Source: Escherichia coli
GTDB lineage: Bacteria; Pseudomonadota; Gammaproteobacteria; Enterobacterales; Enterobacteriaceae
Reading direction: 5' to 3' (one strand)
Assembly: GCF_041248615.1 (NCBI RefSeq)
Contig: NZ_CP158426.1
Length of the DNA stretch: 64,000 nt
The number at the start of each line of letters is the position of its first letter. Within the stretch, counting starts at the first letter, position 1. The position numbers are program-made. This document shows positions 15,001 through 21,000 of this stretch, in pieces.

Positions 15001-18000
15001 GGCTGTTACCCGCCTGATTGAGTTGCTTTAATGCGTCACGGGAGTTTCTGATTGCGCCAGCCAGCTCTTTCGAACTGGCCTGTGCAGCACGGAATGGGCG
15101 GGTGAGTTTGTCAACCGCATTAAGAATGACCTGCAGCCGCAGGTTATTATTACTCATCGTTGGCCCCGCTTCTCTGAATCGCTTTATACCGCCATTCCAG
15201 CACTTCGGTCAGCGGCATAACGTCAGTAACGGATGGCGGCCAGTGAAAAATGGTGGCGATATCTGCCACCAGAGCGTCAACCGTCAGGCTGTCGGTAAAC
15301 CGGCAAGCACCGACTTCTTCAACAAAAAAGTGACAACCTCAACCGACATAGCTGTGAGATCTGCCGGGTCCATCTCTGCGATTTCCTGTGCAGTCAGTGC
15401 CGGACTGGAAATGCGGGGGATCACGGTCATCATCGCGTTCACATCCATATCCATAATGGCCTGCAGGCGTGTACCGCGCAGCGCACCGGACTGCGGTTTA
15501 CGCAACACAATTTCGGTAATTTCTGTTTTACCGCGCATGATGGGGGTATCCAGTTGAATGGTCTTTTCAGTCTGCTTATCGCTCATTTTATTGTCCTGTA
15601 AATTGGGTTCTGGCGCGGTATCCCGCGCCGTTCAGATACATCAGAGGCCGAGGGCGTTGCGGTGCGCTTCCATCAGGTCCACACCGTCCACAATTTCCAC
15701 CATGTTGATAAGGTCCACTTCATAGAGCACCTCACCATTGATAGTCAGCTTCGCGTAGCTGTTGGTACTGGTCACTTTGGTGGTGTTGCTTTCGCCCGTC
15801 TTCCACTCACCGGAATCCACTTCTTTGTGACGTCCGCGCACCACAAGCTCCACGGCCTGCACTTCCCCGGTATCGTCACGCTGGATAGAGCCGGTAAAGC
15901 GCAGCTGGATGCCATCCACCGTGGCTTTGCCCATCTGCTTAAACAGCAGCAGTTCAGTACCACCAATGGAAAATTCTGTATCCAGTGCACTGTCATCCAG
16001 TCCCAGATCCACATCCACCGCCCCCGGCATTCCGCCGCCGCGATACTTCTCATATTTGCGGGTGAATTTCGGCAGCGTCAGCGACTCAACGATCCCCTGC
16101 CAGTTATTCCCGTCGTTAAACAGGTTCAGGTGTTTTAATTTACGTGGTAAAGCCATGTTGTCCCCTTACGCGCTGACCTGGCTGGCGAAATTCACCAGGT
16201 ACTGATCGGTGATGCGCTGACGCAGCATCAGGTTTTCAAGTGGTGGCACTGGCGTGTAGTCGTAATCGATGGTGAGTTTTCCGGCTTTCAGAGTGTCTTT
16301 GTCGTTCACCGACTCATCCAGCCAGCAATCGCCACCAATGAGATAGCCCTGACTGACCAGGCTGCGCATTTTGGCGCGGATACCTTCGATAATGTCCCGG
16401 GCCAGCGACGGGTTAAGCGGTTTATCCACCGCCCACATGTGTGCTTCTGCCATCGTGTCCATCAGCACCTGCGCCGTGCGGGTGTAGTTTTCGAAGGCAA
16501 AGAGCGGGTCATCACTCAGGCAGCGGGAACCCCAGAAGCGGAAACCGTCTTTGCGGATAAGGGTGGTGACGTCGTTCTGGTTCAGCAGACCTGCATCGGT
16601 TGCCGGGTCCTGCAGATCCCAGAACACATCTGCAGAAATTCCGGTGACACCGTTCACGCCCACGTTGGACAGGCTTTTGTGCCACCCAGTCTGCTCATCA
16701 ATTTTGGCACGCAGACCAAGCGCACGGGCGGTGGCATATGCCGTTGCTTCGGCATTCAGCACCGTGTCCCAGCCAGTAAAGTCGGGCCAGATCAGCATTC
16801 CTTCGCGCTGGCTGAAGTTTTCACGGTAAGTGATCGCCTCCTGCACCGTCTTGCAGCCATACGCTGACAGGTAAGCAAACCCACGCAGGCTTTGCGCCAC
16901 ACTCAGCAACTCAGTAGCAACGGCTTTGTTATCGTGACCTGGCACGCCGAGAATGCGCGGTTTAACGCCGAGCTGTGTCTGGGCAGATAACAGGGCTTTC
17001 ATGCCTGTTTTTTTACCTTCAGCAGTCACTGCGCCGATGATATTGGTCGTGGTTTCTTCTTCCGCTTCACCCTGCGGCACACGCACAACAACGGTCACGG
17101 GTTTTGCCTGGTCAGCGATGGCGTCCAGCGAACGGGCCAGCGTACCGGACTCACCCGCTTTACCGCTGGCAGTCAGCACATCAGTGATCAGCACTGGTTT
17201 ATTAAGAGGAAACATTTTTGCATCGGCATCATCGCCCGTGCAGACCATACCCACGATGGCGGTGCTCACCGTGGTAATGGATCGGGTGCCTTCGTTGACT
17301 TCAACAACGCGCACCCCGTGGTGGTAATCCTGAGCCATAGTGGCGAACCTCCTGATTGGATTAGGCTTCGCCCTATGTTGAAGTGATTGTGCCTGACAAA
17401 CAGCTAAGCGCAGTTGTACCGTTATTCACACAAAATGACGGTATTTGTCTGCTTGCAGGGATAATCAAAATTATGCTGATTCAGGGGGATTCATTGCTCT
17501 TATTTGCCGGAAATTTTCTATAAATGGTAGAAACGCCTACATCAAAAATCAGTGCAATACGCTGTCTTGATTCTCCGGCCTCGAGTAAACGTCCAATCTG
17601 TGCCCACTGTTCAGTGGTCAACTTAGGACGGCGTCCACCTACTCTGCCTTTAGCACGAGCTGCAGCCAGCCCTGCCCTGGTACGTTCAACTATCAGTTCG
17701 CGTTCCATTTCAGCCAGGGCACCCATGACATGAAAAAAGAAACGGCCCATTGGGGTACTGGTATCAATACTGTCAGTCAGGCTTCGGAAATTCACACCAC
17801 GCTGGCGCAACTCTTCTATCAGCGTAACAAGATGCCGCATACTGCGCCCCAACCTGTCCAGCTTCCAGACAACCAGCGTGTCTCCTGCCGATAGTGTCCT
17901 GAGCAGCTTTTTCAGCCCCGGTCTGTCGGACTTGGTGCCACTGATTTTATCCTCAAAAATCCGCTCACATCCCGCACAGTTCAGTGCATTGCGTTGCAAA

Positions 18001-21000
18001 TCGGTGTTCTGGTCATTTGTTGACACGCGTACATAGCCAATAAGCATGATCAATCCCCTGAATAAAAACCAGGGATGATGCCAGTTAGCTGTTACCTCTG
18101 CATTTTCTTAAACGTTGGTTTGGGAGAAGGTGCTCCAGCTATTGGTGTTCCGTTCTTCTGGCCGTCCGCTGCAATGCCAGATACCGTAATCGAAAGCTGG
18201 TCCGGCATGGTGTTTTTGAAGTTCAACGGCGCGAAATTCTCTGCCACTGATTACCCTGTGCTGGCGAAAGTGTTTCCTTCGCTGGTATTACCTGAAGCCC
18301 GCGGTGATTTCATTCGTATCTGGGATGACGGGCGAGGGGCGGACAGTGGACGAGCATTATTAAGCTGGCAGGCAGCAACATCTTTATCGCAATTTGGAGG
18401 TAATTATCCAGAGGGGTCCGGCCATTCGATTGCTAATCACGATGGAATATCAGCACACGAGCCGGGTTTCTCTCGATACCATTACACCAGTAATTCAGTG
18501 GGTGATGGTGTGAATTTTATAGCCGTCAGACCACGTAACATCGCATTTAACTTTCTGGTGAGGGCTAAATAATGAAACCTGTTTTTGATAAAAATGGGCT
18601 GGCTACAGTGCCGGGCGATATGCGTTGTTTTTATTATGATGCTGAAACATCTGAGTATACGGGCTGGTCTGATGAATATATTAATACTGGCGTAAGTATG
18701 CCCGCCTGTTCCACTGGAATTGACCCTGGCGAAAACATTCCGGGAAGAGTGGCAGTATTTACAGGTAAGGGATGGAGCCATGAAGAAGACCATCGCAATG
18801 AGACTGTTTACTCAATCGAAAATGGTGCTGCTGTTACAGTGGATTATATCGGTGCCATCAAAAACGGTTATGTCACGCTTTCACCGTTAACGCCATATGA
18901 TAAATGGGATGGTAAGAAATGGGTGACAGATACTGAGGCACAACACGGTGCCGCAGTAGAAGCGGCAGAAGCACAGCGCCAGTCACTGATTGATGCAGCA
19001 ATGGCTTCCATTAGTCTGATTCAGCTGAAATTACAGGCCGGACGTAAACTGACGCAGGCAGAAACAACCAGACTTAACGCTGTGCTGGATTACATTGACG
19101 CGGTGACGGCAACAGATACCAGCACCGCGCCGGATGTCATCTGGCCTGAACTGCCGGAGGCGTAGGCCATTCAATATCTGGAGCACTGGAGGTATCAACC
19201 AGTTCCAGTGCGTCCAGATAATCCAGCCACAAATTATATTGCGCCAGTTCCTCACCTTTCAGACGACCAATAGCCGCTTTACCAGGCCATTGTTTACTGT
19301 TCATATAATCGTTGGCCTGATTAATCAATTGCTGCTTCTCCAATTCGGCTGCAGCAATTTGTTCCTCATGTGTTGGTGGTGGAATTTCAGACCATGCAGG
19401 AAAACCATTTTCTCCAGCGATACGGATTTTTCCTTTCGGCGGTAATCCGGAAAACTCAATATACACTTGCTCATCAACTTCAACAGCATCATCTGGCCAT
19501 GAGTCAGCTTGAGTGTAATCCTCTTTCATCTCCAGCGGATAGAAAGAGTTTGTAGTCGCGGAATATATGTAATTCATTTTTCACTCCATATAGCTAAATT
19601 AACAGCCTAACGCTAAAAATGAAGCGCCGAGGCCAGGAGTACTGGCTCTGGATATAAATTTAACCGGGTCGGGACTAAAACCTGCACAGGCAATATAACC
19701 AACAGCCCCGCTATCTGGTGTGTAGTCTTGTGAGACCAAAACACGCAGACATCTGTTTGGAAATGCAATCGGGAAATGGGTTACTACATCCTGTGCAATG
19801 CCTGGTGCGCCGATTGAGCCCCACTGAAGAATAAAACCTGATGGTAATTTTTGATATCCAGTACCTGAAACAGAAAGCGTGAAGCTACCCATATCAGGTA
19901 TCTGATTCGCCCCTGTCCCTACATTCCTTTTAGCCGCTTCTCCCAAACCAAGGTATGTGAGAAGACCAGCTACATCCTTTCCACTCAAATTGGTAAGCGT
20001 ATTGTCCAGCGGTTGTTTACCTGACAGCGCATTAAGCATTGTCGTGGCAAAGTTCGGATCATTCCCCAGCGCCGCTGCCAGTTCGTTCAGCGTATCCAGT
20101 GCCGCAGGTGCAGAACCCACCATTGCTGCAATCGCCGATTTCACAAAAGCCGTGGTGGCAATCTGTGTATTGTTGACCGACTGTGCCGCAGTAGGTGCTG
20201 TTGGCGTTCCGGTAAGTGCCGGACTCGACAGTGGCGCTTTTAGTTCCAGCGCATTGTTAATGGTGGTGCTGAATTTGGGGTCATTGTTTATGGCCGCGGC
20301 TATTTCTTTCAGCGTGTCCAGCGTGGCTGGCGCACCATTAATAAGAGCCGTCAGTGCCGCCTGAACAAACGCGGTGGTCGCAAGTTGCGTGGTATTATTC
20401 CCCGCCGCTGGCGTTGGTGCTTTGGGGGTTCCGGTAAACGTCGGGCTGGCTTTTGGCGCGTACTGTGAATGCGGGTCCAGTGCGGCAAGATGTTTTGCCA
20501 TCAGATCATCCGCGTACACCTTCAGCTCCAGTGCCTTGTCATCCACATACTTGCGGGTTGCCAGCACTACAGCAGGGTCGATTTTCAGGGTGATATTGTC
20601 CGTGCTGCTGGTAATCAGCACCATGCGCACGGTCTGAGTGCGCCCGCTACCTTCAGCCAGTTGCGGCTTATAGCTTTCCGGGCAGTTGCCCACGGCAATC
20701 AATGCCCCTGACTCATCAAACAAGCCCACTTCACGTATCCACCAACCGCCCTCGTTTTCAGGGATCACCTGTTCGGCAATAATCTGACTGCTGTTCTGCG
20801 GGTCGATATAGAGCATATTCAGCGCAGCCCGGCGTTTCTCATTTACCAGTGCAGTCTGCTTTGAGTCTGGCGTTGGCAATGCTCCGCCGCCATCGCCCAC
20901 CGCCATATGGGTAATTTTTAGCGGCACACCGAGCGCGGCGGCGCTGGCAAGTTTCGCCGCGCCAATATCCGTCAGCAGGGTATAAAATTTTGTGCTCATG

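Follow-up and report, generated by a model that had tools for sequence, protein, structure and literature searches.

The tail-fibre region of a prophage in this Escherichia coli chromosome raises the question of whether it holds a working DNA inversion switch and, if so, to which of the known systems that switch is related. Based on the whole stretch of DNA analysed (64 kb, referred to here as the window), we consider it very likely that the locus is a functional site-specific inversion switch of the Pin type, within the Hin/Gin/Cin/Pin family, in a 186/P2-like prophage. The tail-fibre switch at this locus is an already known kind of phage system.

Gene layout of the prophage locus

The prophage is inserted between ybjL and rcdA, at roughly 10.2-44.4 kb of the window. 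It is of the P2/186-like type (Peduovirinae), with late genes in the order V W J I H ... FI FII E T U D ogr, and it also carries portal, terminase and capsid genes, an A replication nuclease, CI/CII and an integrase (RefSeq annotation of the identical sequence in strain NRZ14408). Sheath and tail-protein matches were found in PHROG. Among neighbouring low-GC genes, PADLOC gave a PDC-S49 candidate match for one and none for two. The features of the locus are as follows.

17481-18047, minus strand: Pin-type serine DNA invertase, 188 aa (Pfam, PHROG and structure matches; RefSeq CDS with the same limits)
17958-18029, minus strand: recombinational enhancer homologue, gene nt 19-90 (alignment to the annotated P1 cin enhancer, nt 19-90)
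17963-17977, minus strand: Fis-like 15-mer 2, gene nt 71-85 (fits KNNYRNNWNNYRNNM)
18011-18025, minus strand: Fis-like 15-mer 1, gene nt 23-37 (fits KNNYRNNWNNYRNNM)
18103-18128, no strand: invertase-proximal 26-bp site, on the minus strand TTCTCCCAAACC AA CGTTTAAGAAAA, core 18115-18116 (pix/cix/gix alignment)
18117-18572, plus strand: silent alternative fibre C-terminus, ~151 aa, collar-like, StfP-type (PHROG 3100, 8e-52; PHROG 523, 1e-46)
18572-19165, plus strand: tail-fibre assembly protein A, 197 aa, cognate to the silent tip (PHROG 105 "tail fiber assembly", 4e-84; RefSeq "tail fiber assembly protein")
19137-19577, minus strand: tail-fibre assembly protein B, 146 aa, cognate to the expressed tip (PHROG 188 "tail fiber assembly protein", 2e-66)
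19599-19949, minus strand: currently expressed fibre C-terminus, ~117 aa, Gp53-like_C (PF21882, 1e-13, residues 384-466 of 466)
19938-19963, no strand: distal 26-bp site within the fibre gene, TTCTCCCAAACC AA GGTATGTGAGAA, core 19950-19951 (pix/cix/gix alignment)
19952-20999, minus strand: constant N-terminal part of a P2 H-type tail fibre, 349 aa, outside the segment (Pfam Phage_tail_fib N-terminal, 9e-65)

The initial annotation described a Gin/Hin-type invertase gene adjoining a segment of ~1.84 kb. The open reading frame (17481-18053, minus strand) is indeed present. Its likely start is the ATG at 18047, as in RefSeq, and from there a 55 bp gap separates it from a 1,835-bp segment that lies between two inverted 26-bp sites; the TTG at 18053 proposed by the ORF lister is 2 codons upstream. 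The protein comprises a Pfam Resolvase domain (4e-53, residues 5-137) followed by HTH_7 (3e-15, residues 140-183), and it matches PHROG 125 "DNA invertase" at 1e-101. Its best solved relative is the Mu Gin structure 3uj3 (E 8e-93), whereas gamma-delta resolvase matches more weakly (1.5e-34). The motif YVRVSTNDQ, which includes Ser-9, is identical to that of Gin. Residue 114 is methionine, while the 3uj3 Gin chain has valine there; M114V is a Fis-independent hyperactive substitution in Gin. The enzyme thus has the catalytic domain, the YxRVSTxxQ serine nucleophile, the C-terminal HTH and the length (~185-195 aa) of the small serine recombinases Hin, Gin, Cin and Pin, and it is close to the founding members (83.5% identical to e14 PinE, 77.1% to P1 Cin and 71.5% to Mu Gin) and much less so to resolvases. 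The serine invertase part of the earlier label therefore stands, but the Gin/Hin subtype gives way to the Pin (e14) type specifically. A shufflon, with its Rci tyrosine recombinase and 19-bp sfx repeats, is ruled out because Pfam identifies the recombinase as a serine resolvase/invertase.

The segment was also said to hold two convergent sets of fibre C-terminus and assembly genes, and all four reading frames were recovered at 18116-18572 (plus), 18572-19165 (plus), 19137-19577 (minus) and 19599-19950 (minus), with the 3' ends of the convergent assembly genes A and B overlapping by 29 bp. As proposed, the last of these frames is at present the tail of the H-type fibre gene (19599-20999), which encodes 466 aa with the Gp53-like tip. 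When the segment was inverted in silico, the 18116-18572 frame came into phase with the constant part with no stop codon, giving a fibre of 501 aa with the collar-like tip, so that a tip is fused in frame in either orientation. The crossover falls at the LGLGE junction, as the initial annotation had it, in the form L|GLGE, with the 2-bp core supplying the second and third bases of the Leu codon preceding GLGE. In the present orientation the silent tip is without its own start or promoter. Its PHROG matches, 3100 and 523, are tail fibre and tail collar fibre, and its match to Pfam Collar is marginal (E 0.13). The two tips are unrelated domains (Gp53-like_C versus collar-like), which is compatible with different receptors, and by analogy with known systems they would be expected to differ in host range or receptor use. 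A constant N-terminus outside, with two opposed C-terminal cassettes and their own assembly genes inside, is the layout of the invertible host-range segments Mu G, P1 C and e14 P.

Crossover sites and the enhancer homologue

The 15-bp repeat TTGGTTTGGGAGAAG was found at 18115-18129, with an exact reverse-complement copy at 19937-19951, precisely where the initial annotation had placed them. This is the sole perfect 15-mer inverted pair in 17000-20500, and a naive estimate of the chance expectation for a 3.5-kb stretch is ~0.006. Across the 64-kb window, however, there are 12 position pairs of this kind, from ~10 distinct repeats; the pair alone is therefore weak evidence, and its significance comes from its position. 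The surrounding hix-like sites, put earlier at 26-28 bp, resolve into two inverted 26-bp sites with a 12-2-12 layout (18103-18128 and 19938-19963), in which, as is typical of the invertase family, imperfect 12-bp half-sites flank an identical AA/TT core; one inner half-site is also common to both. Position by position, the two sites line up with e14 pix, P1 cix and Mu gix, and the P1 record puts the crossover at exactly the same central dinucleotide. The 15-bp repeats had been called cores; the repeats hold up, but the crossover lies at the AA/TT on their outer edge (18115-16 and 19950-51) and not in the middle. That the repeats are the recombination sites is borne out by E. coli NRZ14408, in which the inversion breakpoints fall inside them. 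Measured between the core edges the segment is 1,837 bp long, and between the site centres 1,835 bp. Of the 78 related loci for which the gene start was found, 64 keep the proximal site at a distance of 81 nt upstream of the ATG of the invertase, and a distal-type site closes the constant fibre part in 50 related loci.

No crossover sites beyond these two were found in the 64 kb at up to 2 mismatches, the third match being the outer half of the distal site. With only two sites, a multiple-inversion system such as Min of p15B or the three-repeat P2-like locus of EPEC is ruled out. A 15-nt match of 93% between 18130-18144 and 19172-19186 was considered as a remnant third site and rejected, being without half-site or core structure; it sits in the coding sequences of GAPAIGV and SAPDIEW, and chance alone would give an estimated ~0.3 matches of this kind in 3.5 kb.

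At the level of sequence, the locus also has the features of a cis enhancer with two Fis sites, the centres of the two Fis-like 15-mers being 48 bp apart within the 5' end of the invertase gene. Both occur at homologous positions in the invertase gene here, gin, cin and pinE, although the motif is very degenerate, with 5-8 matches in each gene. A strict Fis motif (G-N13-C with an AT-rich centre) was dropped for inconsistent positions among the four genes, and a degenerate literature consensus, reportedly that of Huebner and Arber from 1989, was used instead. Additionally, third-position synonymous variation is lower in codons 7-30 than in codons 31-135 (0.49 v 0.78 bits, one-sided p 0.01) and lowest at the two 15-mers, a suggestive result from a test that draws on related sequences. 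Fis would be predicted to bind at these 15-mers, and inversion probably depends on Fis and the enhancer and, as in the rest of the family, would be expected to need DNA supercoiling.

Orientation in other genomes and relation to known switches

The whole window is 100% identical to the chromosome of E. coli NRZ14408 (NZ_LT599825.1) except for the inversion of exactly this segment. Same-strand alignments at 100% cover 1-18129 and 19937-64000 (as overlapping pieces, 19937-40100 and 39332-64000), and 18115-19954 matches on the opposite strand; all of the ~62,160 flanking bases are identical. A query in the flipped configuration was matched in NRZ14408 at 100% identity over 2,701 bp, while megablast with the window orientation gave no match above 96% identity at a coverage of at least 80%. 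Since flanks and segment are identical and yet the orientation is opposite, the flip must be very recent, and the two assemblies together suggest that the segment switches in this strain.

Both orientations were likewise seen in E. coli complete genomes (25 records in the given orientation and 22 flipped, at a coverage of at least 80%) and in viral contigs. In the RIVM and BH100 series strains, the homologous pinE locus occurs in either orientation at the same chromosomal coordinates. Of 80 related loci in IMG/VR, the two-site layout recurs in 50, where the segment has a median length of 1,846 bp; the tfaA-type cassette is sense in 29 loci and antisense in 24. Three-site relatives also exist (L060 and L065). 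Most related loci show 90-96% identity in the constant fibre part; tip cassette combinations vary, and the Gp53-like and collar-like pair is one of many.

One of the closest classical systems is the P segment of the cryptic prophage e14 of K-12. Besides the similarity of the invertases, the two loci have the same inner half-site and core, their proximal outer half-sites differ by one base, the spacing of the repeat arms is the same (1,797 nt), the invertase is directed away from the segment with its 5' end beside the site, tfaP and tfaE converge with the same 29-bp overlap as the assembly genes here, and the LGLGE junction is the same. However, e14 is a defective lambdoid element, whereas the present prophage is a complete-looking 186/P2-like myovirus with a P2 H-type constant fibre part, and only the invertase (80% nt) and the tfa 3' halves (90% nt) align to K-12 e14, the receptor-binding tips being different. 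The P1 C segment has the same AA/TT core; its cixR, TTCTCTTAAACC AA GGTATTGGATAA, is a close match to the distal site; the invertase gene aligns with the annotated enhancer of cin (nt 19-90); and the constant fibre part adjoining the site (P1 S, beside cixR) has 73% nt identity. Unlike the arrangement here, P1 cin points toward its segment, with its 3' end overlapping cixL, the C segment spans 4.2 kb and its tips are much longer, and P1 is a plasmid prophage. The Mu G segment has the same order, with a constant S part, the Sv-U and Sv'-U' cassettes and then an invertase directed away from the segment; it differs in its GA/TC gix core, in having repeats of 34-41 bp and in its length of 3 kb.

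Invertible tail-fibre loci of this type, likewise in P2-like prophages, occur in EPEC E2348/69, and also in phages such as pro483, 500465-1 and Cartapus. Deposited phage genomes have a DNA invertase and two tail-fibre assembly genes annotated at this position, and a DNA invertase has been reported as frequent in this P2 hotspot. One EPEC locus differs in having three repeats and four variants, compared with two sites here. Coexisting orientations in P2-like prophages and e14 have been detected by whole-genome sequencing, with PCR confirmation for e14 (Goldberg et al. 2014, PMC4272514).

Proposed mechanism, alternatives and implications

In the mechanism that we propose, invertase dimers would bind both inverted 26-bp sites, and the synapse would be assembled by the Fis-bound enhancer within the 5' end of the invertase's own gene. 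Ser-9 would then cut both sites in a staggered fashion at their central AA/TT (18115-16 and 19950-51), and subunit rotation and religation would leave the 1,835-bp segment inverted; the exact chemistry of cutting and rejoining is presumed to be that of the family. Because inversion would leave the constant fibre part (349 aa) and its late promoter where they are, it should exchange the in-frame downstream tip and its cognate assembly gene, that is, the Gp53-like tip with tfa B at present for the collar-like tip with tfa A when inverted.

A different enzyme could in principle do this work. Gin, Cin, Pin and Hin complement one another, e14 has nearly identical sites, and in many E. coli strains loci of this kind occur several times over, at up to 11 places in a genome, so that another Hin-family invertase might invert the segment in trans and make the adjacent gene dispensable. 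We consider this very unlikely, as a single matching place was found in the NRZ14408 chromosome, the adjacent gene is intact and the enhancer homologue lies in cis. It is slightly less probable still that the locus is a frozen relic, with a dead invertase or dead sites, and that the two public orientations are old states inherited independently. Prophage modules do often decay, several related loci, such as L026, L028, L035 and L039, are missing one of the sites or have degenerate ones, and a sigma-70 scan between the proximal site and the invertase ATG found no promoter-like site. Against this, the identity of the window and NRZ14408 in flanks and segment points to a recent flip, and no reading frame is broken, the enzyme retains its catalytic motif and the two sites are of canonical form.

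Inversion is also possible in principle at any inverted repeat, and assemblers can mis-orient repeat-bounded segments; the IMG/VR contigs L036, L037 and L064 look mis-joined around such loci. However, efficient RecA recombination in E. coli usually needs roughly 23-27 bp, and 15 bp is far shorter than any read, so that an assembler would not be confused. Moreover, the repeats correspond exactly to the conserved inner half-site and core of pix/cix-type sites beside a cognate invertase, and identical breakpoints recur in dozens of loci. General RecA-dependent recombination between the 15-bp repeats, or an assembly artefact, is accordingly the least credible account, with a probability close to negligible.

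Beyond the Pin-type switch itself, a broader reading, which we regard as very unlikely, is that the junction and the Pin-type invertase unit form a portable module across unrelated phages, into which any tip can be plugged, with invertase-assisted cassette exchange ongoing. Such a module may consist of the GLGE-encoding inner half-site, the 3' halves of the tfa genes and the Pin-type gene, including the enhancer embedded in it, and may span lambdoid e14, P1, Mu and P2-like phages. If so, the cassette combinations in the 80 related loci would reflect invertase-assisted exchange and not homologous recombination alone. Shared fibre modules are reportedly an old idea, attributed to Haggard-Ljungquist in 1992 and Sandmeier in 1994; only the invertase-assisted exchange would be new.

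The importance of the locus lies mostly in correct annotation. Inversion accounts for the difference between two assemblies of an otherwise identical chromosome, and in the opposite orientation of the segment the fibre gene is given a wrong label by automatic annotation. In addition, the definition of the tip/chaperone pairs and of the exact crossover point could be of use for host-range engineering and tailocins. For the biology of these prophages, the locus represents a clean and probably active case of phage host-range bet-hedging.

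Prophage setting, invertase and fibre cassettes

The locus belongs to a 186/P2-like prophage placed between ybjL and rcdA in the RefSeq annotation of the identical E. coli NRZ14408 sequence. Its genes run ogr, D, U, T, E, FII, FI, invertase, segment, H, I, J, W and V, followed by the lysis, capsid, terminase and portal genes, the A nuclease, CII, CI and the integrase. The invertase sits between the fibre genes and FI, the position that in P2 is the Z/fun hotspot, at which a recent survey found DNA invertases to be frequent.

Open reading frames of the locus (lengths from the ORF list)
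17481-18053, minus strand: invertase, 190 aa
18075-18572, plus strand: ORF containing the silent fibre tip, 165 aa
18572-19165, plus strand: tail-fibre assembly gene tfa A, 197 aa, PHROG match 4e-84
19137-19577, minus strand: tail-fibre assembly gene tfa B, 146 aa, PHROG match 2e-66
19599-20999, minus strand: fibre gene, 466 aa

The initial annotation had placed a serine invertase beside the segment, and this holds. The product of 17481-18047 carries Pfam Resolvase (4e-53) and HTH_7 (3e-15) domains, matches PHROG 125 'DNA invertase' (1e-101) and keeps the YVRVSTNDQ motif including the Ser nucleophile. Among solved structures it matches Mu Gin best (3uj3, E 8e-93), with gamma-delta resolvase far weaker (1.5e-34). 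Global identity is highest to e14 PinE (83.5%; P1 Cin 77.1%, Mu Gin 71.5%), which by sequence makes it a Pin-type invertase. Residue 114 is Met, and Val in the solved Gin chain; as M114V in Gin is a Fis-independent hyperactive substitution, Met here is consistent with normal regulation. Within the 142 bp that separate the invertase stop from the sheath gene FI, 17415-17432 (TGTACCGTTATTCACACA) forms a TGT-N12-ACA dyad like that of P2 late promoters controlled by Ogr, and this suggests that the FI operon retains its own late promoter 3' of the invertase.

The two convergent sets of fibre-tip and assembly genes were likewise recovered. The 466-aa fibre begins with a P2 H-type fibre domain (PF12571, 9e-65) and ends in a Gp53-like_C tip (residues 384-466), while the 18116-18572 frame matches PHROG tail fibre (8e-52) and tail collar fibre (1e-46) families. 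Inverting 18115-19951 in silico gave an open 501-aa fibre with the same 349-aa constant part and an unchanged N-terminal domain, its tip matching Collar only marginally, in agreement with the proposed tip swap.

Several other genes in the window were recorded. Two low-GC genes (32833-36242, minus strand; 0.34-0.35 versus a prophage value of 0.51) occupy the P2 old/tin hotspot, flanked by the portal and replication-nuclease genes; the 384-aa product is a RES family NAD+ phosphorylase according to RefSeq, with no match in PADLOC, and the other, a 630-aa P-loop NTPase, matches the candidate defence family PDC-S49 (4e-156). Between baseplate gene V and a virion morphogenesis gene, on the strand opposite the late genes, a 288-aa hypothetical ORF (23519-24385, plus strand, GC 0.33) likewise had no PADLOC match and looks like moron-type cargo. 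Outside the prophage, a chromosomal RelE/ParE-family toxin and HTH antitoxin pair (~55942-56647, plus strand) is annotated by RefSeq in the identical sequence between rimO and dgcI. The nitroreductase gene nfsA (~6195-6906, minus strand) carries a frameshift according to the annotation of the identical NRZ14408 sequence; nfsA loss is associated with nitrofuran resistance. NRZ14408 itself appears in the literature on mcr-mediated colistin resistance and darobactin testing.

Crossover sites and enhancer homologue

The inverted 15-bp cores are as first reported: TTGGTTTGGGAGAAG occupies 18115-18129 and its exact reverse complement 19937-19951. This is the sole perfect 15-mer inverted pair within 17000-20500, and a repeat finder extends it to 32-nt arms, 78% complementary and separated by 1,797 nt. 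The whole 64-kb window contains about ten distinct inverted pairs of this kind, so the repeat is unremarkable alone and it is its placement that counts. Another such pair, TCAGCGCATCACCGA at 14149-14163 with its complement at 16206-16220, 2 kb apart, lies within the tape-measure and sheath genes, lacks recombinase-site features and is probably due to chance in GC-rich coding sequence.

Window and known sites in a common 12-2-12 register (window sites read from the segment interior outwards)
Proximal site, 18103-18128, minus strand: TTCTCCCAAACC AA CGTTTAAGAAAA
Distal site, 19938-19963: TTCTCCCAAACC AA GGTATGTGAGAA
e14, first site: TTCTCCCAAACC AA CGTTTATGAAAA
e14, second site: TTCTCCCAAACC AA GGTTTTCGAGAG
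P1, first site: TTCTCTTAAACC AA GGTTTAGGATTG
P1, second site: TTCTCTTAAACC AA GGTATTGGATAA
Mu site: TTCCTGTAAACC GA GGTTTTGGATAA

Since the crossover annotated in the P1 record is exactly the central dinucleotide, cuts in the window would be expected at 18115-16 and 19950-51. Each pair supplies the final two bases of the Leu codon preceding GLGE, and GLGE itself is encoded by the inner half-site common to both sites, in line with the LGLGE junction named initially. No third crossover site was found in the 64-kb window with up to two mismatches allowed, and the segment is accordingly best read, from its sites, as a simple two-state switch.

Two 15-mers fitting a degenerate Fis consensus, which we take from the literature to be KNNYRNNWNNYRNNM, lie at nt 23-37 and 71-85 of the gene with centres 48 bp apart, at identical positions in the window invertase gene, gin, cin and pinE. 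In the P1 record, nt 19-90 of cin are annotated as the inversion enhancer, and the homologous stretch of the window is 17958-18029. Because this region also encodes highly conserved residues, synonymous sites were examined in 35 non-redundant, related invertase genes, using only codons whose amino acid is invariant. Entropy at third positions was 0.49 bits in codons 7-30 versus 0.78 bits for codons 31-135 (one-sided Mann-Whitney p 0.01) and was lowest at the two Fis-like 15-mers, the intervening spacer being variable. The reduced synonymous variation may mark a conserved enhancer homologue, but is suggestive rather than proof, since the genes tested are related to one another.

Orientation of the segment in sequenced genomes

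In a search of 5,426 complete E. coli genomes, the window orientation had no match above ~96% identity at ≥80% coverage; the in-silico flipped query was 100% identical to NZ_LT599825.1 (E. coli NRZ14408) over all 2,701 bases. By direct alignment, the NRZ14408 chromosome is 100% identical to and collinear with window 1-18129 and 19937-64000, and 18115-19954 aligns on the opposite strand, with the overlaps between alignments falling exactly in the 15-bp cores. These overlaps and the register shared with pix, cix and gix (the e14, P1 and Mu sites) bear out the view that the inverted repeats are the recombination sites. The locus could also be a frozen relic in which the switch no longer works; this is unlikely, because inversion of the segment is the sole difference between two assemblies identical at ~62,000 flanking bases, as site-specific inversion at these sites predicts. 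The original observation is thus confirmed and its interpretation as an invertible switch supported.

In NRZ14408, RefSeq splits the flipped fibre gene (NZ_LT599825.1 3479162-3480667; 22095-23600 of region L001) into a pair of 'incomplete' pseudogenes, one of them wrongly named 'integrase', although the 501-aa frame is open, and annotates the silent Gp53-like tip as its own CDS. Such splitting is an annotation artefact typical of invertible fibre loci.

E. coli complete-genome records at ≥80% coverage divide into 25 in the given orientation and 22 flipped, and in related strains (RIVM and BH100 series) the homologous pinE locus occurs both ways round at identical coordinates. An IMG/VR scan yielded 80 loci with invertases 86-100% identical; 50 have the window's layout of H-type distal and proximal sites (median segment 1,846 bp), and the proximal site lies exactly 81 nt before the invertase ATG in 64 of the 78 with a gene start found. 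In 29 loci the tfaA-type cassette was sense, in 24 antisense, and each of the window's two full cassettes was seen in both orientations. At least three crossover sites in the viral contigs L060 and L065 point to multi-state switches. Four further loci (L036, L037, L064, L078), in which both ends have outer half-sites of one type (proximal or distal) or a second invertase is present, may be mis-assembled mixed-orientation populations or inter-locus exchanges.

Relation to known inversion systems

Pin/e14, Cin/P1 and Gin/Mu are textbook systems. In K-12 e14, alignment to the window is limited to the invertase with its proximal site (80% nt) and the 3' halves of the tfa genes (90% nt), with the repeat arms likewise 1,797 nt apart, and in P1 S the constant fibre part adjoining the distal site is 73% identical; judged from these alignments, the pattern is the well-known mosaicism of shared fibre modules. 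Whole-genome sequencing has shown coexisting fibre-locus orientations in P2-like prophages of EPEC E2348/69, a three-repeat variant included, and coexistence in K-12 e14 was confirmed by PCR too (PMC4272514). The same invertase and a pair of tfa genes are annotated in the deposited P2-like genomes of pro483, 500465-1, Cartapus and Klebsiella phages.

The locus shows all testable features of the invertase family and belongs to a kind of system that is already known. What it adds is confined to a natural flip between two otherwise identical sequences, with the exact sites, core and enhancer homologue defined.
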